Source of the DNA: a phage
Sequence record: PX880100.1
DNA length: 64,000 bases
Strand: one strand, 5' to 3'
A program made the position numbers and the translations under genes. Of the stretch, positions 14,299 through 43,091 are shown piece after piece (within the stretch, counting starts at the first letter, position 1; each line of letters starts with the position of its first letter). The notes below the pieces were generated by a model. It had not been told where the DNA came from and ran no database searches. It saw only the letters and a program-made list of their open reading frames with translations.

Positions 14299-14390
14299 CT
14301 CAAATAGCCCTTCGGGGCTATTATATTTAAATTTCATTTGCTTACTGAGTGAAATTTAGATATAATATATTTTATAAATCGGAGACAACT

Positions 14391-14645
14391 ATGGGACTCT
14401 TTAAAAAGAAAGTTTATTTAACACAAAGTCAAGAACGTAGGTTCTTAGCTCTGTCTCAATATTATCACTTACCTTTCGATCATTTTGTAGAACGGGCGTT
14501 AGAACAATTCCTAGAAAAGGAATTAAAGGCAATTAGACCTGAACCGCCAAGAGTACCAAATGATGCACAGAGAGGTCATCCATGTATTCCTCCTATGCCG
14601 CCAATTCCTCCAGCGACTAGGGTAATTATAGAAGGCGAAAACTAA
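14391..14645 (+). CDS. hypothetical proline-rich protein
   Basis: Track ORF trimmed to ATG after GGAG; follows promoter. Confidence 0.4.
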   Translation: MGLFKKKVYLTQSQERRFLALSQYYHLPFDHFVERALEQFLEKELKAIRPEPPRVPNDAQRGHPCIPPMPPIPPATRVIIEGEN

Positions 14646-14914
14646 TGTCTATTCTTTTATCTGCTTTAGAAGCAAAACAAAATACTATTGCTGTTATTAA
14701 ACAGGAAGTACTTAATCTAGAGTCACTTATTGCCGTAGAGATTGATAAAGCAATCAAAGAAAAAGAATTTAACTGCCATATTCAGGGATTAACTGAATAT
14801 TCAGAAAACGCCAGAAACAGCGTTATGCAACGACTCACTAAACTAGGCTATGTCGTAGAAGCTAAGTATGAGCAGCGTGAAGGTTTTTGGCTTGAAATTG
14901 ACTGGAGCAAATAA
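14645..14914 (+). CDS. hypothetical protein
   Basis: ORF track; overlapping start/stop coupling. Confidence 0.4.
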   Translation: MSILLSALEAKQNTIAVIKQEVLNLESLIAVEIDKAIKEKEFNCHIQGLTEYSENARNSVMQRLTKLGYVVEAKYEQREGFWLEIDWSK

Positions 14915-15390
14915 TGTCGGTTTTCCACATTTACACAGATGGTGCTTGTAAGTCTAACCCAGGTCCAGGTGCTTGGGGTTTTATTGTCTATGATGATAAC
15001 GACGATCGTTTAGGTTCTAAATCTGGTTATAATCCTAAAACTACAAATAATGAGATGGAACTCACAGCTATTGTAGAAGCTCTACGTTGGTCTGTTAAAA
15101 AAGATAATAGACCAATTGCTATCTATACTGACTCTGCTTATTGCAAAAATGGCATGGAAAGTTGGATGTTTTCTTGGCAAAAGAAAGGCTGGAAGAAAGC
15201 AGATGGTGAAGTTCCTCTTAATCTAGAACTTTGGCAGGAAGCATTTAAATTAACACAGCAGTATATCAACTTTCATAATACTAATCCTACCTTTATTAAG
15301 GTTAAAGGGCATTCTGGTATTAGTGGTAATGAAGCTGTAGATGCATTGTGTAATACAGTTATTACCGAGCAAGAACTTGCCGATATGTAA
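14914..15390 (+). CDS. rnh: ribonuclease H
   Basis: YTDGAC...ELTAI...YTDS...HSG..NE.D RNase HI motifs. Confidence 0.85.
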   Translation: MSVFHIYTDGACKSNPGPGAWGFIVYDDNDDRLGSKSGYNPKTTNNEMELTAIVEALRWSVKKDNRPIAIYTDSAYCKNGMESWMFSWQKKGWKKADGEVPLNLELWQEAFKLTQQYINFHNTNPTFIKVKGHSGISGNEAVDALCNTVITEQELADM

Positions 15391-15466
15391 TAAATAAATT
15401 AAAAATTTTCTTGCTTAAAGCCCTCTAATTTAGTATAATATTCGTATTGAAAGTGAGGAGGGCTTT

Positions 15467-15745
15467 ATGCGAATTTATAACTCAAATTCACTAGGATTTA
15501 AACCATTGAGAAAACGTGCACAATCACCTCGTCAAATAAGAAAGGCTAATATTGGTGAGCCAGAAACACGTCTTCCACCCCCTCCAGAACAACGTTTAGT
15601 TTATCTGGACGAAGAATTAGCTAAACGCGAAAGAAAAGCTCAAGAAGAGATTGAGCGTAAGAAAATGTGTACTGCTCCGGCGTATAATAAAGGAGCGTAT
15701 CAATATGTCTCAGATGCTGAACAAGCTAAGATGGTTGGTAGATAA
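15467..15745 (+). CDS. hypothetical protein
   Basis: ORF track; promoter and GGAGG upstream. Confidence 0.45.
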   Translation: MRIYNSNSLGFKPLRKRAQSPRQIRKANIGEPETRLPPPPEQRLVYLDEELAKRERKAQEEIERKKMCTAPAYNKGAYQYVSDAEQAKMVGR

Positions 15746-15761
15746 TTTTTAAAAAATTCAT

Positions 15762-15790
15762 TTGCTAAACGCTTCAAATTCTCGTATAAT
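15762..15790 (+). promoter_or_regulatory. N25-like early promoter
   Basis: A-tract, TTGCTA-17 bp-TATAAT, then CATAAATTGAT. Confidence 0.65.
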
Positions 15791-15828
15791 ATACTTCATA
15801 AATTGATAAACAAAAAGGAAAACAAATA

Positions 15829-16344
15829 ATGGCTAAGCAGAAAAACGCAAAAACTCAAGCAGCTCCGGCAGTTAAAACTTTCCCGCAGACTGAGGCTAAT
15901 CGCAAAGCTCGTCTGGAACGTCACCTGCGTAAGCATCCTACCGATGCTCAGGCTGCTCAAGCACTGAATAATCCGGCTCCGATTCGTCAGAAGCCTAAAG
16001 CTAAAAATGCCACCCGTAAATCCTACAAAATGGTTATGTATGTAGAAAATTACGGACACAAATCTGTCCCAGTTTCCCTGAGCTTCAACGCTGGGGCTGA
16101 ATTGTTCTCTCGTAATGGTATGTCTATGAAAGACTATGAGAAGGCAGTTAACCAGAAACGTAAACCAACAGCAGATGTATTGCGTGATACTCGTGGACAG
16201 TTTGGTTCTGTTAAGCCAAATATCTTTGGCGTAGAGTATAGTAAAGATAATGTTCGTGCTCTGTGTTACGGTGTAGGCATTAAGTTCACGGGTGATTCTG
16301 CTCGTAAATCTGCTAAACCAGCTCGCAAGCGTAAAGCGAAGTAA
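15829..16344 (+). CDS. hypothetical highly basic protein
   Basis: K/R-rich termini; host-optimal codons (ctg, cgt, ggt). Confidence 0.5.
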   Translation: MAKQKNAKTQAAPAVKTFPQTEANRKARLERHLRKHPTDAQAAQALNNPAPIRQKPKAKNATRKSYKMVMYVENYGHKSVPVSLSFNAGAELFSRNGMSMKDYEKAVNQKRKPTADVLRDTRGQFGSVKPNIFGVEYSKDNVRALCYGVGIKFTGDSARKSAKPARKRKAK

Positions 16345-16407
16345 TAGATAAATAGGGGCAGAAGCCCCTACAATCTACTAATTCTCTAACTAATCAAGGA
16401 TATTTTT

Positions 16408-16623
16408 ATGTTCTCTAAGAAACCACGCTCCGTTACTGAAATCGTTGCTTCCTTTACCACTATCACTGATGAGCTTCAAGCTCGTATTGAGGCTGATCAA
16501 AAAATTGCTGCGGATATTCAGAAACAGCAGGAAGAACTCGCTTTAAAGTTGGCTGAAACCAACAAGAGTGAAAAATCTGCCCAAACTATTATGGAAAATA
16601 TCCTTAAACTGCTGGGCAAGTGA
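16408..16623 (+). CDS. hypothetical protein
   Basis: ORF track; terminator hairpin downstream. Confidence 0.45.
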   Translation: MFSKKPRSVTEIVASFTTITDELQARIEADQKIAADIQKQQEELALKLAETNKSEKSAQTIMENILKLLGK

Positions 16624-16664
16624 TTTAAATCAGGGGGCGAAAGCCCCTCTTATTTGGAGAAACT

Positions 16665-16901
16665 ATGCGTAATTTTGTAGCAAAGAATGATTTTAACCGT
16701 GCTAGCACTCATAAGTCCGCTAGAGATTATACACGACTTTCTAGTCATGAGGTAATGGATACCTGTTATGAAGAGCTGGAAGGTAGCTGGAATGAGTGGC
16801 CCGACTTCTCTATGGAAGAGAACTGGGATGTCAGTGAGGATATGCTTCCTGGTTTTAAAGACCCCAAGAAGTGGGAGTCTATTAAAGAGACAGCTCTTTA
16901 A
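16665..16901 (+). CDS. hypothetical acidic protein
   Basis: ORF track. Confidence 0.4.
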   Translation: MRNFVAKNDFNRASTHKSARDYTRLSSHEVMDTCYEELEGSWNEWPDFSMEENWDVSEDMLPGFKDPKKWESIKETAL

Positions 16902-16929
16902 TAGTTTTCTACACAATAAAGGATAAGTT

Positions 16930-17631
16930 ATGAAAGTAAAACCATTTGGTATGCTAGATATTGAATCTCTGGGAACTCCAGGAGATTGTGGTACTACTCA
17001 TATCGCAATGCCTTCTTTCGCTTTTGTGGCTATGCATGGAATTGATAAAGACCCTGATCTAATATTTGTTACTTTGGATGTACAAGATCAGCTTAATTCT
17101 GGTGCCAAAGTTACAGCATCTACTCTAGCATTCTGGATGGATCAAGCTAAAAATAGCCCGTCTGCTATCCACATTATGGAAGCTATGAAGGAACGTAATC
17201 CAAAACTGATTGCCTTCCAAAATGGTAAACATCATTGCACTAATAAACTCGGCTCTAACTATGCTGCCTACTCTATGGCTAAAAATATTATGGAGTTGGC
17301 TTTAGGCGAAAATGCTTTGTATTATGGCAACGGTCCAGAGTTTGATATGACTATCTACTCTGCAAACACGTTCCATGCTGGAACCAATGAAGAGGTAGTT
17401 CCGTGGAAATTCTGGAATTTGGGTAATGTTCGATCTCTTCGTAACCTCTGGATGCAAGCTGGATACAGTTATAAAGCTCTAGAGACCGAAGGTATTAGCT
17501 GGGCAATAGCTAAAATGGAGAAGATGGACACCATTCGTTATGGGATCTATCCGGTTAAGCACGACCCAGCATTTGATGCCTTAGTTGAAAGCTATTGTGT
17601 TGCAGCTATGATCGAAAAAATGAAAATTTGA
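16930..17631 (+). CDS. DEDDh-type 3'-5' exonuclease (DnaQ-like)
   Basis: LDIESLG exo motif I; C-terminal H-x4-D (HDPAFDA). Confidence 0.55.
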   Translation: MKVKPFGMLDIESLGTPGDCGTTHIAMPSFAFVAMHGIDKDPDLIFVTLDVQDQLNSGAKVTASTLAFWMDQAKNSPSAIHIMEAMKERNPKLIAFQNGKHHCTNKLGSNYAAYSMAKNIMELALGENALYYGNGPEFDMTIYSANTFHAGTNEEVVPWKFWNLGNVRSLRNLWMQAGYSYKALETEGISWAIAKMEKMDTIRYGIYPVKHDPAFDALVESYCVAAMIEKMKI

Positions 17632-17701
17632 TTTGCTTCCGGCCCCAAAATTCTGTATAATATATTCATAAATTTGAGAAAACAACAAAAGGAAAACAAA
17701 T

Positions 17702-17884
17702 ATGCCAGTATCTAAAAATGTTCGTAAAAATGGTAAGAAAGCTACTCGTAATCTGGGTATCCGTCGTATGGCTGAACGTCAATCAGGTGTCCAGAAAATC
17801 TTTGATCTGCTAAATCGTGCTAATCCTAAAATTGATAACAGTAAAGATACTGTTCTGCGTACCTTACTGGCAATGGGTCTGTAA
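17702..17884 (+). CDS. hypothetical small basic protein
   Basis: Promoter cassette upstream; host-like codon usage. Confidence 0.45.
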   Translation: MPVSKNVRKNGKKATRNLGIRRMAERQSGVQKIFDLLNRANPKIDNSKDTVLRTLLAMGL

Positions 17885-17936
17885 TAGACCAACTTTAAAC
17901 AAATTCAAATCTTAAACTTCATATAAGGAAGAAACA

Positions 17937-18575
17937 ATGACCACTCGTATTTCTAAAACTCGTGCTCTGGCAACCATCAAATCTCTGGAAGCTAAAATCC
18001 GTAAAGCTACTGAACAACAGCTTCTGATCGCTGTTGGTGAAGGTAAGGATAAAAACCAGGTTGTAGTTGGCGCTGCAATCGAAGTAGCTGATCTGTCTAC
18101 TCGTATTAAGACTGATTTCCAGTCTCTGCTGGATATGATGTCCCAGCGCGATCGTATCAAAGCTGCTCTGATTAAAAGCAATGCGGAAACAATCGTTGAG
18201 ATTGGCTCTCGTAAGATGACTGTTGCGGAAGCAATTGAAGCTAAGCGTTCTATGGAACTTAAAGCTCAACTGCTGGCTAACATGCGTAAGCAGTTCCATG
18301 CCGCTACAGTTAAGTTTAATGCGCAGAAAGCACAGTTTGATGCTAAATATGAGCGTTTGCAGGATAGCATGGCTACCCGCGATAAGAAAACTTCCGAAGA
18401 TGAAGTTAAAATGCAGCTCAACCTGCTGGAACTCAAGAATACTCCATTCTTGATTGATCCGCTGGAACTGGAGAAGCTGATTAAGCAGCATGACGAGGAA
18501 TACCAGGACTTTGCAACAAATGTTGACTTTGTTCTGTCCGAGTCTAACGCCTCTACCTTCATTGAAGTAGAGTAA
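17937..18575 (+). CDS. hypothetical coiled-coil protein
   Basis: ORF track; strongly host-optimal codon usage. Confidence 0.5.
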   Translation: MTTRISKTRALATIKSLEAKIRKATEQQLLIAVGEGKDKNQVVVGAAIEVADLSTRIKTDFQSLLDMMSQRDRIKAALIKSNAETIVEIGSRKMTVAEAIEAKRSMELKAQLLANMRKQFHAATVKFNAQKAQFDAKYERLQDSMATRDKKTSEDEVKMQLNLLELKNTPFLIDPLELEKLIKQHDEEYQDFATNVDFVLSESNASTFIEVE

Positions 18576-19017
18576 TAATTTAAAAGCTAGTAAATCGGTA
18601 GACGAAAGCCCAAGCATCTTACCTCGCAGCAGCGGTTGAAATACGAGGTTAAATAAGACCGCTGACCATACTATAAAGTATAATCTATTGGAGATTATGT
18701 TTATTACACCAGCCTTTTAAGCTGACACGTAAGAACAAAGCGTCGTTGATATTACCGACACAACTTCAAAGATCAACATTTAAGTATGAAAGCTGAAAAG
18801 TTTAAAGAACTCAAACTTCTAAACTTCTAAAGCTAAAAGATGCAAAGTATTCGTTGATGATTCAAACCCTAGATCAAAGGTACATGGCTCATAAGATATG
18901 GCCTGTGGCGCCTCTAGGCTGTTTATCGGTTTACTAGTTTCACAATTTAAAAATGTATTTGCTAATTTATTAAGTTATCTGTATAATATATTTTTAAATT
19001 GATGAAACGAGGCTATT

Positions 19018-19335
19018 ATGACTTTTCATATTTTGATTGATGATGTGCGTAATCTTCACGGAATGGACATTATCATTCGAACCCCAGAAGCCGCTGTAGA
19101 GTTTCTGAATAAAACTGATACCACCGGCCATTTCGTTTATATGGATAATGACTTGGCTGTAGATGGTATGGAAGGTTATCAAATTCTTCGTTTACTCTTA
19201 GAATTTGGGCAGAGACCAAAGAAAGTGGTACTAGTAACCTCGAACCCAGTAGCTAAGCAAAATATGCGTAATGATTTGCTTGACTTAGGGTATAAAGAAA
19301 ATCCCAATCGTGTTGAATATGATTGGCAGGAGTAA
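19018..19335 (+). CDS. hypothetical protein
   Basis: ORF track after promoter cassette. Confidence 0.45.
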   Translation: MTFHILIDDVRNLHGMDIIIRTPEAAVEFLNKTDTTGHFVYMDNDLAVDGMEGYQILRLLLEFGQRPKKVVLVTSNPVAKQNMRNDLLDLGYKENPNRVEYDWQE

Positions 19336-19790
19336 AAAGAATGAAGGCAGCTTTGCTTTTAGTAGCTGCCCTTACCTTCAGCTTTAGTAGTCAGGCATCG
19401 CACGATGCAAAAGAAATAGATTGCATTGCTAAAAATATCTATTTCGAAAGTCGTGGTGAGGGCATAAAGGGAATGACGGCGATTGCACATGTTACTAAAA
19501 ACCGTGTAAACTCCGGTAAATTCCCAGATTCCTACTGTAAAGTAGTATATCAGTCTAACCAGTTCTCTTGGGTATCTAAGAGACCAAAAGTTGATAAAAC
19601 TGATGAGGCTTGGCAAACCGCTAAGAATTTAGCTAGAGTGATATACTACGTTGATTTACCACAAGATCCTACATATGGAGCACTTTACTTCCATAGTGGT
19701 AAAGATAAACCTTACTGGACAAAGAAGTTTAAGAAAACAACTAAGATTAAGGGACATACGTTTTATAAACCTGTTGTCACTAAAACTTAA
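19323..19790 (+). CDS. SleB-like cell-wall hydrolase with signal peptide
   Basis: N-terminal signal sequence; Hydrolase_2-like NIYFESRGEG and KFPDSYCKVVYQ..QFSW. Confidence 0.6.
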   Translation: MAGVKRMKAALLLVAALTFSFSSQASHDAKEIDCIAKNIYFESRGEGIKGMTAIAHVTKNRVNSGKFPDSYCKVVYQSNQFSWVSKRPKVDKTDEAWQTAKNLARVIYYVDLPQDPTYGALYFHSGKDKPYWTKKFKKTTKIKGHTFYKPVVTKT

Positions 19791-19858
19791 AAATTTACTT
19801 GCTTAAATACTTAAATTTCCGTATAATACTTCCATAAATTAATGAGAGGAAGCGAAAT

Positions 19859-20029
19859 ATGAAATCAGTTGTAATTATTGGTGTTAACACTCGCGGTATT
19901 CGTACTACGAAAACTGTTAAAACTTCCAACGTTGCTGAGATCACTACGAACCCTAAAAAGTTTGATTTCGCCAAAGTCTCAGCAGTTATGACAGAACAAT
20001 CTTTTAACCAAGCGTTAGGAATGAAATAA
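19859..20029 (+). CDS. hypothetical small protein (56 aa)
   Basis: Hand-translated; below track cutoff; promoter cassette and GAGAGGAAG upstream; stop overlaps next ATG. Confidence 0.45.
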   Translation: MKSVVIIGVNTRGIRTTKTVKTSNVAEITTNPKKFDFAKVSAVMTEQSFNQALGMK

Positions 20030-20472
20030 TGGAAGAGAATATTTTAGATGTTTTGCGTAGAGCTTTGCAGGATTCTAAGTTTAATGGTTCTGATAAAGAA
20101 GTCGCTAAAAGCTATCAGACCATAATCGGGGATCTTCAGCGTATTGATAAAGATTTCATCACTTCTGAACAATTTGTGTCTTATCTCAAAGCTCAACTAA
20201 AAAGCATTAACCAGATGAAAGCTAAACTTCATGGTCAAGATCTTGATAGTTATAGCTTGCAGTCCGCTCAGTATGAATACATTCTAAATAAGTGGTTGCA
20301 GGAGTATCTGCCTCCTCAGTTATCTGATACTGAGATTCGTAAATACTTTGCAGAATTAGTTAAGCTAAACCCTGGAATTACAAAAGGTATGCTGATGAAA
20401 GCGATTAAGGAAGAATTTCCTGGGCGTTATGATGGTGGTACTGCTGCTCAGATTGCTGGCGAATTTAATTAA
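20029..20472 (+). CDS. GatB/YqeY-domain protein
   Basis: C-terminal EYLPPQLSDTEIR...GMLMKAIKEEFPGRYDGG resembles YqeY family. Confidence 0.55.
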   Translation: MEENILDVLRRALQDSKFNGSDKEVAKSYQTIIGDLQRIDKDFITSEQFVSYLKAQLKSINQMKAKLHGQDLDSYSLQSAQYEYILNKWLQEYLPPQLSDTEIRKYFAELVKLNPGITKGMLMKAIKEEFPGRYDGGTAAQIAGEFN

Positions 20473-20480
20473 AAATTTAT

Positions 20481-20509
20481 TTGCTAAATGCTTATAAATT
20501 CTGTATAAT
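20481..20509 (+). promoter_or_regulatory. N25-like early promoter driving an ORF-free RNA region
   Basis: TTGCTA-17 bp-TATAAT; no ORF for about 0.8 kb downstream. Confidence 0.6.
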
Positions 20510-20732
20510 ATATTCATAAATTAGAGAACAGCGAGCCGATTACGCTGAGTGCAGAATCCCAACCGGAGCGCATTGAATAGAGTCGGTGGGTTAGTTGTAA
20601 AACTAGTACACAGGGGGCGGCAATCCCGGTTAGTGGCTAGAACGTGTAAAATGAGGCGTCTGAAACCTCTCCCCTAAACTCTTCTCTAATTTATAAATAG
20701 TGGGGTGTGGAAATCACTTATGTAGTAACACT

Positions 20733-20804
20733 GCCGTCCTAGTATAATTGGTATTATCAAGCCGTAACTGGTGGAAGATGTAGGTTCGAATCCTACGGTC
20801 GGTA
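20733..20804 (+). ncRNA. tRNA-like element (canonical T-arm, anticodon arm unresolved)
   Basis: GTAGG-TTCGAAT-CCTAC T-arm and 6/7 acceptor pairing; no clean anticodon stem. Confidence 0.3.
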
Positions 20805-21306
20805 AGAACTGGATAACTGATGCTTTTAACGTAAAAGCTTCCGAGGTTAGTTGCGCACTGCCTAAACCACGCGGTAGTTGGTTCCAGACTAACCAACCAG
20901 TCTGCTGAATAGTTTTATTACGATTTAACTATGTCCAGGCTAAAGAAGAACTTTAGAAGGTATTCTAGGATAGTGAAGTTCTTTCTCCACATCGGAGTAG
21001 TTTTTCAAGCTATCCACAAAGTGGGAAATGCTGACATGAGAGATGTCACTAATGGTGCACAATAGCACAGGTAATTCGCGATAATTCCTGTTGAGTAGCA
21101 GCAAAAGGCGGGAAGTCATGACCCCAAGCCTAACCGAGTCCTCAATATACCGCAGGACATAACCACTAAGTCACCCTGACTTAAACTGGAAAATAATAGA
21201 CGTTACTGTATTTTGTCTTGAAATACTTAATGAGTGAGACTTATGACTCTCCCGGTATCGTCTGTATTTTTAAGAGTTTTTACGAGAGTTCTTAAAAATA
21301 CTTAAA

Positions 21307-21381
21307 CGGGGTGTAGTCTAAGGGAGAGGCAGGAGTCTTCTAAATTCCTTTATGCAGGTTCGAATCCTGTCACCTCGGCCA
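21307..21381 (+). tRNA. tRNA-Arg (anticodon UCU)
   Basis: Hand-folded cloverleaf; T-loop TTCGAAT; encoded CCA. Confidence 0.65.
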
Positions 21382-21415
21382 ATTTTATTAACTGTAACTA
21401 AAACAAAGGAAATAT

Positions 21416-22363: not shown

Positions 22364-22387
22364 TACCCGCATGTAACATCTGAAGTA

Positions 22388-22421
22388 AGCCCTGCGTTTC
22401 CTGGAGAGCGCAGGGCTTTTC
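22388..22421 (+). terminator. Rho-independent terminator
   Basis: AAGCCCTGCG...CGCAGGGCTT hairpin then TTTT. Confidence 0.6.
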
Positions 22422-22459
22422 TATATAATGTAATTATAAAACTAACTAGGAGATTAAAC

Positions 22460-22978
22460 ATGGGTGTTGATGAATTAACACAGCATCTTCTATCTAGAGG
22501 ATTTGATGCAGATAAATATCATTGCTGGTTAAGTCCGGAAGGATGGCTAACAGTCCCGTTGTATGATTTCTCTGGGATGTTGAGGGGCTATCAAACTTAT
22601 AATCCTTCTGCTCCAAAAGGTCATGGTAAGTATCCCTTTGAAGCTAAATATTTTACCTATTCTACTACCCAGTGTGTATGGGGATTAGAAACTCTCAATG
22701 GAGATGAAAAAGTAGTATTGATCGCTGAATCTGTATTTAAGGCAGTTGCGTTACATAACGCTGGTTATCCAGCCCTAGCAATGTTGGGTTCTTCTCCAGG
22801 AAAAGCGTTATTAAAGCAACTGAAATTATTACCTTTTAAATTGGTAGCTGTCGGGGATAACGATCCTGCGGGTGAAAAATTTGCTAGAAAATTAAACGGC
22901 TTTGTTTCTCCTGTAGATGTGGATGAGATGTCTACCGAAAACTTGAAAAATTTTCTTGCTATGAAGCTAAATTTCTAA
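22460..22978 (+). CDS. hypothetical protein, possible Toprim-like fold
   Basis: IAES and GDNDPAG acidic motifs resemble Toprim. Confidence 0.4.
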   Translation: MGVDELTQHLLSRGFDADKYHCWLSPEGWLTVPLYDFSGMLRGYQTYNPSAPKGHGKYPFEAKYFTYSTTQCVWGLETLNGDEKVVLIAESVFKAVALHNAGYPALAMLGSSPGKALLKQLKLLPFKLVAVGDNDPAGEKFARKLNGFVSPVDVDEMSTENLKNFLAMKLNF

Positions 22979-22999
22979 TATAATATATCTTATAAATTC

Positions 23000-23088
23000 G
23001 GAAGAATAGCATAACGGTATTGCAGCAGATTGCTAATCTGTCGGTTTGAAATATAGCCTTGTGGGTTCGATTCCCACTTCTTCCGCCA
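23000..23088 (+). tRNA. tRNA-Ser (anticodon GCU), long variable arm
   Basis: Perfect acceptor stem; T-arm GTGGG-TTCGATT-CCCAC; encoded CCA. Confidence 0.7.
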
Positions 23089-23094
23089 AATTCT

Positions 23095-23172
23095 GGTTCT
23101 CAAGCTCATATGGTATGAGCACCCAGCTCATAACTGGAAGGTACGTAGGTTCGAATCCTCGGGGAGCCACCA
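23095..23172 (+). tRNA. tRNA with CAU anticodon (Met/fMet/Ile2)
   Basis: Acceptor GGTTCTC/GGGAGCC; anticodon loop CTCATAA; weak T-stem. Confidence 0.5.
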
Positions 23173-23754: not shown

Positions 23755-23769
23755 AATTAAGGAAATAAG

Positions 23770-24136: not shown

Positions 24137-24226
24137 CTCCTCCAAATAGAATTTTTAAAAATGTACTTGCCTTTTGCTTTAAATTTCTGATATAATAGTT
24201 ATATAAATTGATGAAGGAGTTAACTA

Positions 24227-24502
24227 ATGCAAAATCGTGTTATAGCAACTGGTATTGAAAGTGCAATCTGTAAATCCTGGGAAGGCTGGGAAGGTGAGAT
24301 TGAATGGCTTTATTTCTATGATGTAGAACTTCTGCCGGAAGTTAAAGCTAAATGTGTTGAAGCTGGAATGGCTCCAGATGCAAAAGCTGATATTGATATT
24401 TCAATGTCTGAACTTAAAGGCCGTGTAATTACTGTTAGTGATGAGGGTGAAGAAGTTTTCGAACTTCCATTCTCCTTAACTGTCACTCCTAAGTTCGACT
24501 AA
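24227..24502 (+). CDS. hypothetical protein
   Basis: ORF track; promoter cassette and AAGGAG upstream. Confidence 0.45.
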   Translation: MQNRVIATGIESAICKSWEGWEGEIEWLYFYDVELLPEVKAKCVEAGMAPDAKADIDISMSELKGRVITVSDEGEEVFELPFSLTVTPKFD

Positions 24503-24584
24503 CTAATACAGCACTGAGCAAGTTCTTTAAAATTTGACTTGCTCAGTGCCTTAAAACTTGGTATAATAGTTATCTAATTTGGAA

Positions 24585-24634
24585 ACATATTTAAAAGTGT
24601 TTAAACTAGTATTTGAATACTTTTAAATATGTTG
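24585..24634. repeat. perfect palindrome, 15-bp arms (AACATATTTAAAAGT / ACTTTTAAATATGTT)
   Basis: Read directly; between promoter and tRNA-Tyr. Confidence 0.8.
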
Positions 24635-24735: not shown

Positions 24736-24742
24736 AATTTAA

Positions 24743-25002: not shown

Positions 25003-25275
25003 ATGCATCCTGAAAACTTCTTTATTTACTGCGCTGATAAGTCGCTGAAACGTAGAATTAACAAAGTCTATCATTATCGTGCTAGTCAACAGCCTTATGT
25101 ATATGCTTTTGACGGTGATCACATTCCATTAGAACAATTATCTTGTGATTACATGATATTGAAGAACTTTGACGAGACAAAGATCTCAAGCGTTCATAAT
25201 CGACAGAATCCCTTAACGTGGAAATATAAGAAGAAAAAGAAAGGCATCAAATTCTTAAAAAATGTAGTTGCTTAG
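25003..25275 (+). CDS. hypothetical protein
   Basis: Track ORF trimmed to first ATG after GAGGGGG, clear of tRNA-Phe. Confidence 0.4.
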   Translation: MHPENFFIYCADKSLKRRINKVYHYRASQQPYVYAFDGDHIPLEQLSCDYMILKNFDETKISSVHNRQNPLTWKYKKKKKGIKFLKNVVA

Positions 25276-25307
25276 TTTCCAAAAGTTCTGTATAATAATT
25301 ACATAAA

Positions 25308-25550
25308 TTGAACTGGAGAAGCAACATGACAGAACAAGAATTGAATGAACGTAAGCTGGTAATGCTCCGCTTACTAAACATTTTCTCTGGTATGGATGGG
25401 GGTATTGACTTTGTTCATCTACGTTCTTTTGTAGAAGAAGCAGAAGGTGAATCTATCACTAAAATCCTTAAACATATGGGTTTACTATTAGATGCTGCTG
25501 GTGTAGCAACGGAATATAACCTCGAAGATCTACCGGAGCGTATTAAATGA
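25308..25550 (+). CDS. hypothetical protein
   Basis: ORF track; promoter cassette and GGAGAAG upstream. Confidence 0.45.
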   Translation: MNWRSNMTEQELNERKLVMLRLLNIFSGMDGGIDFVHLRSFVEEAEGESITKILKHMGLLLDAAGVATEYNLEDLPERIK

Positions 25551-25735
25551 AGAAGCCAAAAGCTAAATTAGTTAAGTTCGACTGTTGTGACACAGAAATC
25601 TTATTCACTAAGTTTGGTGAATTTAAGATGTGTGAATGTGGAACATGTGGTTATGATCATGGTGATGGATATTATTGCAGGACTCTTGGACCAGCAAATC
25701 TAATCCACTTTTCATGGCCGGAAGATAAAGAATAA
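25547..25735 (+). CDS. small Cys-rich protein
   Basis: CC..., CECGTCGYDHGDGYYC; overlapping start. Confidence 0.4.
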   Translation: MKKPKAKLVKFDCCDTEILFTKFGEFKMCECGTCGYDHGDGYYCRTLGPANLIHFSWPEDKE

Positions 25736-25737
25736 TT

Positions 25738-25812
25738 GCATCCTTGTCCGAGTGGCTTAGGTGACGGTCTGCAAAATCGTCTAGGTTGGTTCAATTCCAG
25801 CAGGGTGCTCCA
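25738..25812 (+). tRNA. tRNA-Cys (anticodon GCA)
   Basis: Acceptor GCATCCT/AGGGTGC; loop CTGCAAA; T-arm GTTGG-TTCAATT-CCAGC; weak D-stem. Confidence 0.55.
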
Positions 25813-25818
25813 AATTCA

Positions 25819-25901
25819 GGGTCGTTAGCCAAGCGGTTTGGCGGTGGACTGTTAATCCATGTCGAAAGACAACGTAGGTTCGAATCCTACACGGCCCGCC
25901 A
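25819..25901 (+). tRNA. tRNA, anticodon GUU (Asn-type) with 13-nt variable arm
   Basis: Good D-stem and anticodon stem; T-arm GTAGG-TTCGAAT-CCTAC; CCA. Confidence 0.55.
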
Positions 25902-26554: not shown

Positions 26555-26902
26555 ATGCGTAATGCTAAAGAAGAGTTGTTACTTGCCTTAAAAAATACTA
26601 ATTCTGAAGTTAAGTGTATTAAAATAGAATTCGGGTATTATGGGGACAAAAAAGTTTGGGTATTACCTCTGGGGTATACAGAAGAAGATATTGGGGATTT
26701 TCTTAATAACCTAGACTTTGAGTATGATTCTGGTTATGGTGGACAACTACTTTATGGTAATGTATGGTTTGCCGATGGAACCTGGCTAGAACGTGGGGAA
26801 TATGATGGAGCTGAGTGGTGGGAATACAAGGCTACTCCAGCAATTCCAGAGGAATGCCGAACAATTAATGGTGAAGTAGATAATACTTTAAGGTTAAACT
26901 AA
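26555..26902 (+). CDS. hypothetical protein
   Basis: ORF track. Confidence 0.45.
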   Translation: MRNAKEELLLALKNTNSEVKCIKIEFGYYGDKKVWVLPLGYTEEDIGDFLNNLDFEYDSGYGGQLLYGNVWFADGTWLERGEYDGAEWWEYKATPAIPEECRTINGEVDNTLRLN

Positions 26903-27295
26903 TAAAATTTCAGTGCAGAACACGGAGCTAGCAATTCGGAAGTGCTGACTCATGATAAGCTGCCTATGTACTTGCAAAGCGGTCGTGTCCAAGACTCGGA
27001 CTCTTGCACTGAAAACAATCAAACATTCTAGCGTGGTTGATGGGGAAACCAGCTTGGCTAGGGCAGAAGCTCGTTCGATTCGAGTGAAAGAATGGTTCTC
27101 GTAAGTCCGCACAAGTGATAATAGGTTCGAGTCCTGTCTAGAATGACACTATAAAGTTTACTTATTATGTAGGTTCCGATAGATCGGCGGGTCTATTCTG
27201 GCATTTAAGAGAGGTCTCGCAAACTTCTTTGTCAGCCGTGGGGTTGGTAGCCTCCAGGTGGCCTACACAATAAGTAAATTTATTAAAAATTCATT

Positions 27296-27324
27296 TGCTA
27301 TTTCTCTTAATTATCTGTATAATA
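27296..27324 (+). promoter_or_regulatory. N25-like early promoter driving tRNA-Pro/tRNA-CAU
   Basis: TTGCTA-17 bp-TATAAT; followed by SD plus ATG with only 3 codons, then tRNAs. Confidence 0.6.
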
Positions 27325-27518
27325 TATTTTATAAAGTGAAGAGAAGGAAAGCAAAATGAAACACAAGATAGCTCAAGTTTTTATGGCATTATGGTGTATG
27401 CCAATAGCTATAACAGCATTTAATCTAGATACTTTTACTATAGAAGAAAAATGTATCGGATTAGTTAGTGGCTTTAGTATGCTTGGCTTATCTTTGTTGT
27501 GGTTGAAGAAATAATATT

Positions 27519-28026: not shown

Positions 28027-28045
28027 ATTAACTCAAAATAAGGAA

Positions 28046-28405
28046 TTGCAAATGCAATTATCAAGCAAGATTCAAGGTTATTTCGGTCATGTGACAATGG
28101 AGTTCGCTATCTCTAAAGGTTGGGACTTCGAACAAGATTTAGCTGAGTTCTACAAAGATATTGATCTGAACGTACCGTACATGGGACTTTCTACTGGTCA
28201 GGAGATCACAGAAGCCGATGTATTCAAGGCAAGTCAAGGTGAGGTAACACCTAGTTTTGCCGAGTTCTGGTTAGGCATTACGTTAAAAGAAGATGCACCA
28301 GATAGTGGTGTACTAATGTCTAGTATGCACTCTGGAAGTTCCGATTACCTTTTCATTAGCGATGTTAAGGAAATACAAGAAGTCTGCAAAAATGTACTTG
28401 CTTGA
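28046..28405 (+). CDS. hypothetical protein
   Basis: ORF track; AAGGAAT upstream. Confidence 0.45.
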   Translation: MQMQLSSKIQGYFGHVTMEFAISKGWDFEQDLAEFYKDIDLNVPYMGLSTGQEITEADVFKASQGEVTPSFAEFWLGITLKEDAPDSGVLMSSMHSGSSDYLFISDVKEIQEVCKNVLA

Positions 28406-28664
28406 TGCTTAATTTCTTGTTATAATATTTATATAAATTGATGAGGAGAAATCCTCATCATAGTTCACTAAGGTATTAGCTCGACCTAGGACTGGCTGCC
28501 AAAAAGCACGATCCCTACGATTCGGGAGAAGTTCTAGATTGGTCCACTAGATTCAGCGGCAACTGAATAGTGTATTGGGTTTGCGAGATGACGTAGTTCC
28601 TTCCGCTCTAAGCGAAGGTGCTGTAGTTACGCCGAGCTAATAGCCTTAGTAAACTAAAGAATTT

Positions 28665-30531: not shown

Positions 30532-30546
30532 AATTTAAAAATTCAT

Positions 30547-30575
30547 TTGCTTTCTCTCTTATTTCTTGTTATAAT
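30547..30575 (+). promoter_or_regulatory. N25-like early promoter
   Basis: TTGCTT-17 bp-TATAAT, then ATAAATTAATGAGAGGG. Confidence 0.65.
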
Positions 30576-30605
30576 ATTTATATAAATTAATGAGAGGGAA
30601 GCCAA

Positions 30606-32863: not shown

Positions 32864-32939
32864 ATTCTGAAATAATTCATTTGCTAAACCTCTCTTTTCT
32901 TGCTATAATATATTTATAAATTGATGAGAGAGGTTTGAA

Positions 32940-34911: not shown

Positions 34912-35066
34912 GATTGATATTAAAATCAACTTACTAGCAAAAGCAAATAATGACAAAGCCCAGCCTGCAAAGTTGCGACTGGGCTATTTTTATAATAAAA
35001 TTTTAGTTGCTTAGATGCCCAAACTTTTGTATAATATGTTTATAGATTGAGGCAAGAGGATTAAAT

Positions 35067-37207: not shown

Positions 37208-37219
37208 TCAAGGATCGCT

Positions 37220-37819: not shown

Positions 37820-37826
37820 GTAGTTT

Positions 37827-37859
37827 TAAGCCAGGGTTTAACGACCCTGGCTTTTCTTT
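37827..37859 (+). terminator. Rho-independent terminator
   Basis: AGCCAGGG...CCCTGGCT hairpin then TTTT. Confidence 0.7.
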
Positions 37860-37975
37860 TATCTAAAATTCTTCTTGACAACGACAAAATTTTGTGCTCC
37901 AAAGAAAATCTTTAAAAACACATTGTAATTTTCCTCCAAAATTAGTATAATGGTACTGGTTAGAGGAGGTTACAA

Positions 37976-38632
37976 TTGGAAAAGTTCTTACAATTATTAA
38001 CGGTACTGCTCCAAGAAGCGAAAGATCCAGCATCGCTTCTTAAACGTCTGCTAACTATCTTAGTTGCTGTCATTATTTTCTTATTTGTTAGTAATACTAG
38101 CGAGGTGATGTCATTCTTAAAGACTTTCTCCACGTCTGCGGTTCTACAGGATGTTCAAACTCAAAGGATAGATAACTTTCCTAATGTAGCTAGAGAAAAG
38201 AGCATGGTACTCTTTTCTCAAACGGGTGCGGATGCTGTTTTTGTAGTCAAGTATAAACCCGATGCCATTAATGATTATTCTAACATTATTGCATGGGAAA
38301 GCAATGCGCAATTAGATAGGGCTGACTTGGCCGATAAAGCAGTAAATAAAACGTCTGAGCTATACAGACGTCACTTAGAGGGCTTTAACTACGCATCGGA
38401 TTTAAGTGTAAGAGTAAATAAATATACGGGGTTAAATATACCTGCGTTTAAGAATGTTACTTTTAATTACATATACACTTGTCCATATTTCAATCTAAAC
38501 AATATCTATGCTGGATATATTGGTATTGCTTGGAAAGATAATCCTGTAGATGCAGCCGATTCTGAGAAATTCAAGGAATATTTAACAAAGCTCTGTTCCC
38601 CACAACAGAGATCTTTAGGTAGATCAATATGA
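37976..38632 (+). CDS. hol: putative holin (TTG start)
   Basis: Hydrophobic N-terminal segment; immediately upstream of endolysin with overlapping stop/start; GAGGAGG SD. Confidence 0.45.
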   Translation: MEKFLQLLTVLLQEAKDPASLLKRLLTILVAVIIFLFVSNTSEVMSFLKTFSTSAVLQDVQTQRIDNFPNVAREKSMVLFSQTGADAVFVVKYKPDAINDYSNIIAWESNAQLDRADLADKAVNKTSELYRRHLEGFNYASDLSVRVNKYTGLNIPAFKNVTFNYIYTCPYFNLNNIYAGYIGIAWKDNPVDAADSEKFKEYLTKLCSPQQRSLGRSI

Positions 38633-39042
38633 GTTTTAAATTTGGTAAAAACAGCGAAAAACAATTAGCTACCGTTAAGCCAGAGCTACAAAAAGTAGCT
38701 CGTAGAGCTTTAGAATTATCTCCATATGATTTCACGATCGTACAGGGTATTCGTACAGTAGCACAAAGTGCCCAGAATATTGCTAATGGTACCTCATTTT
38801 TAAAAGATCCTAGTAAAAGCAAGCATATTACTGGGGATGCGCTTGATTTTGCTCCATATATTAATGGCAAAATTGATTGGAATGACTTAGAAGCATTTTG
38901 GGCGGTTAAAAAGGCTTTTGAACAAGCGGGTAAAGAACTAGGTATTAAACTTCGTTTTGGTGCTGATTGGAATAACTCCGGAGACTATCACGATGAAATA
39001 AAACGTGGTACCTATGACGGCGGTCATGTCGAACTAGTTTAA
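38629..39042 (+). CDS. lys: endolysin, L-alanyl-D-glutamate peptidase (M15-like)
   Basis: 137 aa; H..D and DGGH metal-ligand pattern; lysis-cassette context. Confidence 0.7.
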   Translation: MSFKFGKNSEKQLATVKPELQKVARRALELSPYDFTIVQGIRTVAQSAQNIANGTSFLKDPSKSKHITGDALDFAPYINGKIDWNDLEAFWAVKKAFEQAGKELGIKLRFGADWNNSGDYHDEIKRGTYDGGHVELV

Positions 39043-39051
39043 TTAATAACT

Positions 39052-39077
39052 GAGGCGGGAATATTCCCGCCTTTTTA
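39052..39077 (+). terminator. Rho-independent terminator
   Basis: GGCGGGA...TCCCGCC hairpin then TTTTT. Confidence 0.7.
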
Positions 39078-39119
39078 GGCAAAGGGGGCTTTAATAATTT
39101 TTGAAGATAGGAGAAAGCC

Positions 39120-39536
39120 ATGTTTGCAGAACTATTCACTATGATGCTGCTAGGTATCTGGAAAATAAGTCTAGTAGTATTCGTTTTAATGATAGTCTTC
39201 ACTATCATTGCATTAACTACCCGAAATAGCTTATTAATAAAGGTTATTCACGGACTAGAGTATATAATTATGGGTTCATTCGGCGTTTGTAAATGCAATT
39301 GCCATAGAGATACGAAATATTGTTGGTTATGGATGGAACTAGAGAATCCTATATCCATAGCTTTGGCTGTTTCATTCGGTATGATTCTTATGGCCCTTAC
39401 TCTAGCATTAATACCTTTGATGTTAGCTGGGGGAGTTACAGCGTATTTCACCCTTTTCTCCCCGATACTTATGTACTCAATTTACCCAGTAACTATGTAT
39501 CTAGTTAGGAAAAAATTTATACATGCAGTAGATTAA
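39120..39536 (+). CDS. hypothetical polytopic membrane protein
   Basis: Three or four hydrophobic helices. Confidence 0.4.
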   Translation: MFAELFTMMLLGIWKISLVVFVLMIVFTIIALTTRNSLLIKVIHGLEYIIMGSFGVCKCNCHRDTKYCWLWMELENPISIALAVSFGMILMALTLALIPLMLAGGVTAYFTLFSPILMYSIYPVTMYLVRKKFIHAVD

Positions 39537-39611
39537 GATAAAAAAGTAGTTGACTTTTAGCCCTAGTTATTATATAATATATACATAAATTAGTTAAGAG
39601 AGGTATATATT

Positions 39612-40043
39612 ATGTCTGATCGTTTCTATACTCAAATGGCGGAGCATTTTCGTATACCACATTACGAGCTAAACATTGCACTCCGTGATCATGACTCTCC
39701 TGAGTACAAAAAGCTCGAAAAGAAAGCGGAAAAATCTATTGATACAAAGGTAGGTGCATCTATGTCTAAGGGCAAAAAGTTAACTCGTCTTGATCTTAAT
39801 AAAATTTTAACTGAACTTTTGGGTACTGATATTGAGGGTGCTAAATTACCGCTTATTGTACTAGAGACTATGATTAAAAAGGTCAAAAATAAAGAATATA
39901 AGAAGGTAGAAGTCCCAGAAGGCAGATTAAAGGCTCCTTATCAGGAAGCATTAACCGAGTGTTTGGGTGTAAATCTTGATCTGAGCACCGCAACCGTAAA
40001 AACTATGAAAAACTTCTTAGAGGCCATTAATAACTATGAGTAA
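39612..40043 (+). CDS. hypothetical protein
   Basis: ORF track; promoter TTGACT-17-TATAAT and GAGAGG upstream. Confidence 0.5.
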   Translation: MSDRFYTQMAEHFRIPHYELNIALRDHDSPEYKKLEKKAEKSIDTKVGASMSKGKKLTRLDLNKILTELLGTDIEGAKLPLIVLETMIKKVKNKEYKKVEVPEGRLKAPYQEALTECLGVNLDLSTATVKTMKNFLEAINNYE

Positions 40044-40326
40044 ATTAGTATATCTATTGAAAGGTTCCACCTGCAATCCTTGCAAGATGTTTGAGCCAGT
40101 ATTTGATAAAGTAGTCAGTGACTATAATTTGGAAATCCATAAAGAGACTGATAATACAGAATTAATGCAGAAATTTGGTGTGCGCCAAGTTCCTGTAGTA
40201 GTTCTAGCAGATCGCTTACCTAATGGTCGAGTAGAAGCCAATCATATTTTGATTGGACGTCAGCTTCGTAAAGAAACTATGCACGAAGCTATTAAAAATT
40301 TCCTGGATGATAATCCAGAGGACTAA
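40036..40326 (+). CDS. thioredoxin/glutaredoxin-like protein
   Basis: CNPC redox motif in a small alpha/beta protein. Confidence 0.55.
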   Translation: MSKLVYLLKGSTCNPCKMFEPVFDKVVSDYNLEIHKETDNTELMQKFGVRQVPVVVLADRLPNGRVEANHILIGRQLRKETMHEAIKNFLDDNPED

Positions 40327-40423
40327 TAAACAAAGCCTGATCTTAGCGGATCAGGCTTTTATTTTACTTGCTTTTTGCTAAAAATTTTGGTATAATACTT
40401 ATATAAATTGATTGGAGGATTAA

Positions 40424-40669
40424 ATGTTAGCGGAACAGGCAAAACGTTTAGCCAGGATAAATAGAGCTGCCCTTCTTAAGAGCAGAAAGAAACCATATAA
40501 ATATGTTAAAAAGAGAATAGTTTCTTCTGTGGGGATTGGAGGTTCTTTTGTACAGTTTAATCGTGATGAAATCAGTTATGAGGCTATAAAAGCCCTCTAT
40601 AAAGAGGGTTATACTCTACAACTATCTAATGATTATGGCACAACTATTTTAACTGTTATTTGGGAATAA
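40424..40669 (+). CDS. hypothetical protein
   Basis: ORF track; promoter cassette upstream. Confidence 0.45.
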   Translation: MLAEQAKRLARINRAALLKSRKKPYKYVKKRIVSSVGIGGSFVQFNRDEISYEAIKALYKEGYTLQLSNDYGTTILTVIWE

Positions 40670-41535
40670 TTATGAAAAAAGAATTTAATGTACATAAAAC
40701 TCTAGTAGTGCCAGATGACGCCAACTTGTTTTTCGTCGGTGATATTCATGGATGCAATGATTTGCTAGAAGATGCACTGAAATTAGCTGGGTATAATAGC
40801 AAAAAAGATTGCTTAGTATGTGTTGGTGACTTAATTGACCGAGGCACACAAAACCTACAAGTTTTAGCCAAATTCCTGTATAATCCACATTTTGTCAGTG
40901 TCCGTGGTAATCACGACCAGTTTATGATTGCAGGAGATTGGGCTAATTGGATGTATAACGGTGGTATATGGGCTATGGAAGAGCTGGATGCAGACACCAT
41001 TAAAAATATCGCCGAAGATATGGCTGAAAAAATGCCAGTATTCCTAACTGTTAGACATCGTGGTAAGAAGTATGGTGTTGTTCATGGTGGTGTACCTTTT
41101 ACATACAAAGAATGCGGTAATGAGGTAGAAACCCCAGTATGGGATAATCTTATTGCACAAGTAGAAGCAGCTAAGGAAGACCCACATGACCATCCTGGAT
41201 ACCATATTGAACCATATTTATGGGATCGAGATGTAATCCAAGAAATAGGCTTCTACTTGTCCAAAAACGGTGAGGAACATCCGTATTTTCAGCGTTATGC
41301 AGGATTTAAAGAAAAATACATGGTAGAAGTGCCCGAAGTTAAAGGGGTAGATTTCGTGTTTCATGGACATACTGGAGTACCTTACCCACTTCTTTATAAA
41401 AACCGTGTTTACCTTGATACTGGCGGTGTTTTCAACGGGCAGTTGACGGTTGCGCAAGTTAACGATGAAACTGGCAAAATCACCACATTTACCACAGACA
41501 AAAATAATAGCTGCGGTGTACAGAGGATTCTTTAA
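40660..41535 (+). CDS. Ser/Thr protein phosphatase (calcineurin-like metallophosphatase)
   Basis: GDIHG, GDLIDRG and GNHD metallophosphatase motifs. Confidence 0.75.
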   Translation: MGIIMKKEFNVHKTLVVPDDANLFFVGDIHGCNDLLEDALKLAGYNSKKDCLVCVGDLIDRGTQNLQVLAKFLYNPHFVSVRGNHDQFMIAGDWANWMYNGGIWAMEELDADTIKNIAEDMAEKMPVFLTVRHRGKKYGVVHGGVPFTYKECGNEVETPVWDNLIAQVEAAKEDPHDHPGYHIEPYLWDRDVIQEIGFYLSKNGEEHPYFQRYAGFKEKYMVEVPEVKGVDFVFHGHTGVPYPLLYKNRVYLDTGGVFNGQLTVAQVNDETGKITTFTTDKNNSCGVQRIL

Positions 41536-41834
41536 TGAATGATAGAATGAAAGAGGTACGAGAAGAATTACAAGCCATGCATATTGATGCCCTTCGTTGG
41601 AGGGCATTAGTTAATGCTTTCGTCAAAGGAGATACCGGAGTAATATATTCTGGAATAGCAGTCAATTTTTGTTTTAATTCTCCTGCTGAAATAGAGATAG
41701 AGACAAGGCTTACTACCTATCTTAATGAGGTAGACCTTAAGGAAGGAGAGACTCCTGAGGAGTTTAAAACCAAAGTGTTAACCTCTTGGGTTGATAGTTT
41801 AATACAGAATAAGGAAAAGAGTAATGAAAGTTAA
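41535..41834 (+). CDS. hypothetical protein
   Basis: ORF track. Confidence 0.4.
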   Translation: MNDRMKEVREELQAMHIDALRWRALVNAFVKGDTGVIYSGIAVNFCFNSPAEIEIETRLTTYLNEVDLKEGETPEEFKTKVLTSWVDSLIQNKEKSNES

Positions 41835-42414
41835 ATTCTGGTCAGACTTGCACTTAGACCACCCTGGAGCGTTACGTTTCCGTCCGTGGTTTAAGAACAT
41901 GAAAGAGCACGATGAGTATATTCTAGATACTTTGTCCAAGCATATTGGTAAGCGAACAAAACTTATTTTGCTAGGGGATATTGCAGTAGGTCGTGAAGGT
42001 CTGGCCAAATTAAAGTCGGTTATCCACAATGTTCCTAACCAACTCATTATGGGTAATCATGATGCGGAACGTCAAGGACTGAGCATTAGGGACTTAGCAG
42101 AAGTTTATGATGATATTCAGGCTCTAGGTAAACAGACTGGAGGTGGCAAAAAGTTTTGGCTATCTCACTGCCCTTTACATCCTAATGAACTTCGTGGCAA
42201 ACTAAATATTCACGGACATGTACATACTATTTCTTTACGTGACCCACGTTATATTAATGTCTCATTTGAAATGAGTAAAACTCCAGTTCCACTAGAGGAT
42301 ATTGTGTCTGGTAAGTTTACTAGCTATGACAGAGTAGTTAATTGTACTACCGGTGAAGTATTACAAATAGGGGAAGATGTAGCTGCTGTATTACGTGGTG
42401 ATATAAATGTCTGA
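41824..42414 (+). CDS. metallophosphoesterase
   Basis: DLHLDHP, GDIAVGR, GNHD and HGHVH motifs. Confidence 0.65.
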   Translation: MKVKFWSDLHLDHPGALRFRPWFKNMKEHDEYILDTLSKHIGKRTKLILLGDIAVGREGLAKLKSVIHNVPNQLIMGNHDAERQGLSIRDLAEVYDDIQALGKQTGGGKKFWLSHCPLHPNELRGKLNIHGHVHTISLRDPRYINVSFEMSKTPVPLEDIVSGKFTSYDRVVNCTTGEVLQIGEDVAAVLRGDINV

Positions 42415-42581
42415 GTATATAGCTGAGGCTATTATTAAACGAATCATACAAGCGATAGCAATACTTATAATCCTTTGTATTGCTATTGGTACGGGATTAG
42501 GCATTTTAATTAAAAGTTTTATTTGCTAAAATGCTTAAGTTTCTGTATAATTACTTTATAAATTGATGAGAAGGAATCAAA

Positions 42582-43013
42582 ATGAACAAAGTTGATAAAG
42601 CTCTAGTTTTCGCAGCAGCAGATAAGTTTGAACAAGTTAAGGCAACTTTCCGAACCCTGTTCCAGTCTTACGTTCAGGATAAGTCTAATCCTATTTCTGA
42701 ACGTTTGATGGTCTGGGAATGCCATGCCTGCAATGCCCTATTAATTGCGGATTATCGTAGCGATATAGATAAAGATCTGTGCGAAATCCTTATCCCTGAG
42801 GAGGCAGAACGTTATCAGTTAATCTCTTTCCAAGATTTGGCGGAACATATCATTCCTGATGATCTTTGGGATAAATACTACGGTGATCCTGAGGACGAAG
42901 GAATGACTCCAGAAGCCTGTATTGAGCTGATCTGCAAAGATCATCCTGAAATTGCAGAGAAATTTGAAAAAGTTTTTGCTTCTGAGTTCTCCGGCGTTGT
43001 TAACGATTGGTAA
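42582..43013 (+). CDS. hypothetical protein
   Basis: ORF track; promoter cassette upstream. Confidence 0.45.
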   Translation: MNKVDKALVFAAADKFEQVKATFRTLFQSYVQDKSNPISERLMVWECHACNALLIADYRSDIDKDLCEILIPEEAERYQLISFQDLAEHIIPDDLWDKYYGDPEDEGMTPEACIELICKDHPEIAEKFEKVFASEFSGVVNDW

Positions 43014-43091
43014 GTAATTAAAAAATTCAGTTGCTTTAAGCCTTAAAATTCTGTATAATAAGTTCATAAATTAATGAGAGAGGAAATTCTA

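Follow-up and report, generated by a model that had tools for sequence, protein, structure and literature searches.

Repeated blocks in the early region of a T5-like phage pair with annotated T5 promoters

The stretch of DNA analyzed here (the window) is 64,000 nucleotides of phage sequence from record PX880100.1. It spans the early region of the phage, including a cluster of 24 tRNAs, and extends further across the pre-early region. The region from 14000 to 20000 is matched by 451 phage records, all of them T5-like, and the best matches are Salmonella and Escherichia phages with about 96.7% identity. For the region from 19001 to 44000, Escherichia phage AKFV33 is the best match among those listed (97.6% identity, 97% coverage). 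In the T5 reference NC_005859, the minus strand is the counterpart of the + strand of the window. An earlier note on this DNA, made from the letters alone, had pointed out a recurrent cassette of about 75 bp between 14330 and 43080, consisting of a promoter, a Shine-Dalgarno (SD) sequence and an ATG, and had assigned it to the known class of strong T5 promoters. The subject of this study is this repeated promoter block.

I scored the copies with a 63-column position-weight matrix in a leave-one-out manner, and 30 shuffles of the whole window served as the null. A copy is named after the coordinate of the first T of its TATAAT (-10 box), and +1 is taken as the A of ATAAATT, following T5 N25. 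Within 14330-43080, the matrix scan gave exactly 20 copies, all on the + strand, and elsewhere in the window it found five strong copies (Table 1) and a weak one (+8801). The leave-one-out scores were 24-63 bits, while the maximum in the shuffles was 5.7. The composite pattern TTGCT-N17-19-TATAATA has 21 exact matches against 0.12 expected, including 18 + strand matches in the range 14338-43060. Since the short word CATTTGCTAAA by itself, with two mismatches allowed, was not enriched (43 matches against 39 expected), the composite pattern and the matrix were used instead. The earlier count of more than 20 copies is right for the whole window, which has 25 strong ones, but not for the interval, which has exactly 20. 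All 18 positions listed in that note proved to be real, each lying no more than 7 bp from a -35 box, while the copies at 22979 and 25291 had been overlooked.

The order of elements in the block is an A-tract, TTGCT(T/A), a 17-bp spacer, TATAATA, an A/T-rich discriminator, and ATAAATT at +1. The information content exceeds background over a stretch that begins about 35 bp before TATAAT and ends about 27 bp after it, which corresponds to about -45 to +16. The total is about 50 bits, to which the -10 box contributes 11, the A-tract 10, the -35 box 8.7, the initial transcribed sequence 7.3, the spacer 7.1, the SD zone 3.6, and the discriminator 2.6. TATAATA and the 17-bp spacer are each found in 19 of the 20 copies, and TTGCT in 18. 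The upstream A-tract, which accounts for its roughly 10 bits over offsets -35 to -24, contains a run of at least four A residues in 17 copies. At +1, ATAAATT is found in 14 copies and TAAATT in 15. Ahead of protein genes, a purine-rich SD follows and then an ATG at +19 to +35. The distance from the A-tract to the ATG is therefore about 64-80 bp, hence the length given in the earlier note; the conserved part itself is about 61-63 bp, and a length of about 75 bp results only if one counts the variable stretch up to the ATG. Two other promoters annotated in T5 have homologs in the window, that is, the pre-early PH22 (TTGACA-16-TAAAAT, within 54246-54300) and the holin promoter (TTGTAA-17-TATAAT, within 37923-37990). 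Both homologs lack the early-type A-tract and the ATAAATT features, and thus the block is class-specific.

Is this block the known T5 early promoter? By alignment and synteny, all 20 copies pair one-to-one with annotated 75-bp "promoter" features of NC_005859, many of which bear the old names given to them when they were mapped in vitro. In these features, TATAAT begins at position 43-44, so that their extent is about -55 to +20, and the consensus of 42 aligned T5 promoter features is the same as that of the window copies. Over the core, 18 of 19 pairs with T5 orthologs are 83-100% identical, which is above the flanks; the remaining pair, that of 14361, has 49% in an ungapped comparison. The published consensus is also the same (PMC3326045, PMC7472727). 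Thus, the assignment to the T5 strong-promoter class in the earlier note was correct, both by the orthology of each copy and by the consensus. The same design was found in Klebsiella phage Spivey, a Sugarlandvirus whose RNase H is 52% identical, and a looser version of it in Vibrio phage D21, whose RNase H is 38% identical. The family comparison took in these two phages and left out Vibrio phage pVp-1, Providencia phage PSTCR5, and Kenya-K41. The sharing with Spivey and D21 points to an old, family-wide solution which may have been kept by selection.

It is almost certain that the blocks are sigma-70 early promoters of a T5-like phage, each of which heads a short early operon and directly adjoins the point where translation of the first gene begins. 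Such blocks are a genuine and usual feature of this phage family and had been annotated and published before; the present result is a correct rediscovery. In the proposed mechanism, the host RNA polymerase with sigma-70 would recognize the TTGCT(T/A) -35 box and the TATAAT(A) -10 box, 17 bp apart. From general knowledge of promoters, the A-tract (about -45 to -37) may serve the alpha subunit as a proximal UP-element subsite. The properties of the open complex and promoter escape would be influenced by the A/T-rich discriminator and by ATAAATT with its A start. The purine-rich GAGAGG-type stretch would serve as the ribosome-binding site of the following gene, with a leader of just about 19-35 nt. 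The resemblance of the copies to one another would result from selection near one optimum, over an old common design across the Demerecviridae, and not from recent copying.

Published work on T5 is in line with this mechanism. T5 promoters are used by the host sigma-70 polymerase, bind it very fast, and are limited at escape, which is modulated by the transcribed region (PMC7472727; PMC12464699). PMC12464699 places the limit of T5-type promoters at escape, not at open-complex stability, and, citing Kammerer 1986, states that the transcribed region of T5 N25 from +3 to +20 governs promoter escape and that the yield of full-length RNA falls to about one tenth in an antiDSR variant. Using primer extension, Klimuk et al. 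(2020) confirmed T5 promoters, and they noted an ATATT discriminator common to the early ones (PMC7472727). Several points weigh against the promoter interpretation or limit it. Only 11 of the 19 in vitro T5 promoters that Klimuk et al. tested gave primer-extension products in vivo (PMC7472727), and therefore not every window copy need be active. A scan with the generic sigma-70 consensus found 51 matches against 52.6 expected; it is not enriched and has no discriminating power, and thus it is the family-specific pattern and the orthology that support the interpretation. The consensus of the discriminator in the window is ATATT as well, while the exact ATATT is found in just 6 of the 20 copies. 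Simple maximization of polymerase binding does not account for the choice of TTGCT in place of the consensus TTGACA. Finally, the start sites and the promoter strength in this phage are predictions from the sequence. A literature search judged by title and abstract gave nothing relevant on genome-wide start-site maps of T5.

The downstream part of the block can be read in another way. The discriminator and the residues from +1 to +8 could chiefly be a class label, resembling an operator, for a phage-encoded regulator which shuts off early transcription, rather than a determinant of strength. Since even tRNA and stable-RNA genes are preceded by the ATAAATT-type start, this start is no signal for translation; the pre-early PH22 and the holin promoter in the same window do not have it; and the differential effect of gpT5.026 may, as Klimuk et al. 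suggest, stem from the early-specific discriminator (PMC7472727). However, the effects of gpT5.026 in vitro are small (two-fold at most) and the mutant still switches classes (PMC7472727), while the transcribed region already affects promoter escape alone, according to PMC12464699. No protein is known to bind this segment as DNA or as RNA. A class label is rather doubtful, and it would add to the promoter explanation, not replace it.

Does the leader act at the RNA level instead? The residues from +1 to +25 could be a shared A/U-rich translational enhancer or 5′ stabilizer. In 16 of the 20 copies, an A/U-rich leader lies immediately 5′ of a strong SD, and the leader of the copy at 28421 (P13b) has a stable 5′ hairpin. 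However, the residues from +1 to +7 are kept without translation (a tRNA-Ser begins at about +9 in the copy at 22979), past +8 there is just an SD at a variable distance, and the hairpin is confined to one copy and has one mismatch in T5. This RNA-level function is unlikely.

Four promoters directly precede RNA genes (20504, 22979, 24562, and 28421). Three of them (20504, 22979, and 24562) have neither an SD nor an ATG. Two of these three have ATAAATT at +1, while 24562 has the variant CTAATTT; in the case of 22979, the tRNA-Ser begins about 9 nt past the predicted start site. P13b alone retains the SD-like GATGAGGAG (GAGGAG), with no start codon at SD distance. Its leader (28439..28460, + strand) forms a perfect 9-bp hairpin with a GAAA loop (-14.8 kcal/mol, z score -4.5), which corresponds to +7 to +28 of the transcript and pairs the GAGGAG. 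This hairpin may mark the 5′ end of the precursor of an RNA2H-like stable RNA. Since three of the four RNA-gene promoters lack both translation signals, the parts of the "cassette" follow need: the promoter and the start-site sequence are found everywhere, and the ribosome-binding site only before protein genes.

These RNA genes have a few further features. Between P16-17 and the tRNA-Arg, about 790 nt (20516-21306) are free of open reading frames (ORFs) and are the counterpart of the T5 stable RNA "RNAX". The 5′ end of this RNAX-like stretch (ACAGCGAGCCGATTACGCTGA) is also found behind the matching promoter of Klebsiella phage Spivey, at about 22997-23050. Rfam gave a tRNA-like match inside the stretch (20733-20804, 35.5 bits) and a tRNA match right behind the tRNA-Ser (23095-23169, 38.2 bits), which was unreported by ARAGORN and whose position in T5 is that of tRNA-Ile2(CAU). 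An Rfam search of 13000-47000 gave tRNAs only, and no RNA family overlapped the promoter blocks.

The lack of SD and ATG in three of the four RNA-gene promoters speaks against the claim that vestigial SD-ATG sequences stand ahead of tRNAs. The example given for that claim was a start codon at 27351-27370 followed by only three codons (MNTR-stop). The sequence there is ATGAAACACAAGATAGCT, which reads ATG AAA CAC AAG ATA GCT (MKHKIAQ...) and opens a 52-codon ORF. The removal of one A from the AAA run yields ATG AAC ACA AGA TAG, that is, MNTR-stop, and the example therefore results from a counting slip and the frame misreading that follows. The ORF aligns over its full length with T5.066, which is of equal length (62% amino-acid and 67% nucleotide identity). 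The nonsynonymous divergence (dN) is 0.32 and the synonymous divergence (dS) is 1.44, giving a dN/dS ratio of about 0.22. The product also matches phrog_18174 from end to end (E value 1.7e-36). Thus, this ORF is a conserved small protein gene and not a remnant.

It was also suggested in the earlier note that the cassette spreads as a unit. In this reading, the block of promoter, leader, and SD would be a mobile or recombinogenic regulatory cassette which spreads or shuffles genes in the manner proposed for the promoter-stem-loop cassettes of T4-type phages. Some synteny breaks do lie at the downstream edges of blocks (14372/14374, 20527, 24590, 25329/25340, 28443, and 40422), one block has been halved at a 7-nt microhomology (22417), and the gene content just behind conserved promoters differs among relatives. 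Breakpoints were taken from chained blastn of the window against T5 and against Salmonella phage S.Kent 1-2-1, a relative at a greater distance. There are 36 breakpoints with T5 and 54 with S.Kent 1-2-1, of which 5 and 5, respectively, fall in the block zones; with the limited power of two relatives, they are not enriched in the blocks (P of 0.06 and 0.21 under a uniform model, and of 0.68 and 0.80 in non-coding DNA). The paralogous copies are on average 60% identical and at most 80%, against about 75% in column shuffles, which falls short of near-identity. Neither in the spacer nor in the upstream part are pairs of copies more alike than expected (the observed variance was reached in 226 and 150 of 2000 shuffles, respectively). 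Structure among the copies was seen just in the part comprising the discriminator and the initial transcribed sequence (0 of 2000 shuffles), and it may reflect functional subclasses with and without an SD. In contrast to the paralogs, the T5 orthologs are mostly more than 90% identical. The range of 83-100% in all but one of the 19 pairs shows that each copy is old and has been conserved individually rather than copied or homogenized of late. Information is at background beyond -45 to +28, with no shared flank or terminal repeat; the SD part is missing where it is unneeded; and the principal example had been misread. Spreading of the block as a unit thus finds no support and is extremely unlikely. 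REP/MITE-like miniature transposable repeats were also considered and rejected, because there are no conserved ends and information is at background beyond the same limits; no search was aimed at target duplications in particular.

The halved block deserves a description of its own. Between the homologs of T5.080 and T5.076, a terminator (22387-22418) runs directly into a TATAAT, a degenerate leader, an SD, and an ATG at 22460. At this site, T5 and S.Kent 1-2-1 have an extra 1.9-2.4 kb with three opposite-strand genes (T5.077-079) and the promoters P12 and P15a. At the junction, the tail of the T5 terminator passes into the -10 half of P15a through the shared TCTGTAT. Judging from this junction, a microhomology deletion probably occurred in this lineage and removed the -35 half of the promoter, and it was not an exchange between blocks. 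Since no intact block was left, the scar does not result from block-to-block recombination. In a weaker form of the idea, the stretches from promoter to SD would be homology patches of about 60 bp for the exchange or deletion of small early genes and modules of the tRNA region. The breaks at downstream edges and the half-block scar at 22417 would then be its traces. This is very unlikely, too.

Table 1. Promoter blocks (63 bp each) of the window and two related features.
Feature	Position	Strand	-10 position	T5 counterpart	Remarks
Block	14326..14388	+	14361	46937-47011 (unnamed)	Drives two small ORFs, then rnh; terminator hairpin directly upstream
Block	15399..15461	+	15434	46337-46411	98% identical
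Block	15750..15812	+	15785	P-H207	100% identical
Block	17621..17683	+	17656	44393-44467	
Block	18947..19009	+	18982	43067-43141	
Block	19787..19849	+	19822	P-D/E33	
Block	20469..20531	+	20504	P16-17	No SD/ATG; drives RNAX-like non-coding stretch and tRNA-Arg
Block	22944..23006	+	22979	P15b	No SD/ATG; tRNA-Ser behind
Block	24156..24218	+	24191	P15c	18-bp spacer
Block	24527..24589	+	24562	P14a	No SD/ATG; tRNA-Tyr 61 nt downstream
Block	25256..25318	+	25291	P14b	
Block	27283..27345	+	27318	P13a	
Block	28386..28448	+	28421	P13b	Drives RNA2H-like RNA and tRNA-Ala
Block	30535..30597	+	30570	P11	
Block	32869..32931	+	32904	26722-26796	
Block	34995..35057	+	35030	24443-24517	
Block	39538..39600	+	39573	19368-19442	-35 box TTGACT; 100% identical
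Block	40356..40418	+	40391	18550-18624	Upstream A/T part overlapped by tail of terminator 40332-40359
Block	42511..42573	+	42546	P-F30	
Block	43019..43081	+	43054	16245-16319	100% identical
Block	7613..7675	+	7648	53638-53712	Outside 14330-43080
Block	11712..11774	+	11747	50061-50135	Outside 14330-43080
Block	60244..60306	-	60271		Outside 14330-43080; drives Cor-like superinfection-exclusion lipoprotein gene
Block	5407..5469	-	5434	55708-55782	Outside 14330-43080
Block	2182..2244	-	2209	58999-59073	Outside 14330-43080
Terminator fused to downstream half (-10, leader, SD) of a promoter	22387..22459	+		P15a	Probable deletion scar within a promoter block
52-codon ORF	27356-27514	+		T5.066	Small hydrophobic protein; behind P13a; ends 4 nt before tRNA-Pro

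A few observations outside the main argument are added here. The early-type block and a gene for an 88-amino-acid Cor-like lipoprotein (phrog_1119, E value 1.8e-26) lie together at 59968-60306 (minus strand), outside the early region; this early-type promoter fits the reported early expression of the T5 receptor-blocking lipoprotein. The promoter at -2209 has no SD or ATG nearby (2150-2197, minus strand). In T5, about 470 nt (59073-59545) are unannotated between promoter 58999-59073 and the gene for the origin-binding protein. The small genes behind conserved promoters vary among this phage, T5, and S.Kent 1-2-1 at 14374-14874, 25340-25877, and 40422-40669, and the small-gene content in front of a promoter also varies among them at 28027-28376. 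Two ORFs at 14392-14914 and one at 28046-28405 are absent from T5. Because colinearity with T5 stops at about 58993 (about position 100 of T5), the part from about 58990 to 64000 would continue across the genome end or a collapsed terminal repeat of a permuted assembly.

The import beyond annotation is small. The classic T5 early promoter design was confirmed at the same places as in T5. These matching places allow confident operon boundaries, and a false lead, that is, the leftover start codon and the idea of a mobile cassette, has been removed.

Three kinds of known systems may be compared with the window copies. T4-type phages have promoter-early-stem-loop (PeSL) cassettes, in which early promoter units are repeated between small genes in a variable region, sometimes by terminator hairpins. 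The early promoter units of the window likewise repeat between small genes in a variable region, and some stand beside terminator hairpins, but there is no evidence here of recombination between units. Strong sigma-70 promoters with an UP element, such as rrnB P1, have an A-tract just 5′ of the -35 box. The A-tract of the window copies stands where such promoters have their proximal UP subsite, while the T5-type discriminator is A/T-rich, not G+C-rich, and the -10 box is perfect. The closest system is that of the T5 early promoters themselves (PN25, PN26, PH207, PD/E33, PK28a, and the P11-P16 series), reportedly described by Gentz and Bujard in 1985. The sequence design, the genomic positions, and the downstream genes are all the same as in the window; the differences are substitutions at the strain level and the lack of P15a, P12, and the genes T5.077-079 in the window. 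In the genome of AKFV33, 32 promoters were reported with TTGCTw and TATAATA at a spacing of 17-18 bp, AAAAATT at -43, and TAAATT at +1 (PMC3326045). This published consensus is the same as that of the window copies, with nothing of substance different; the AKFV33 paper gives a logo (PMC3326045), and the analysis of each copy is the part added by the present work.

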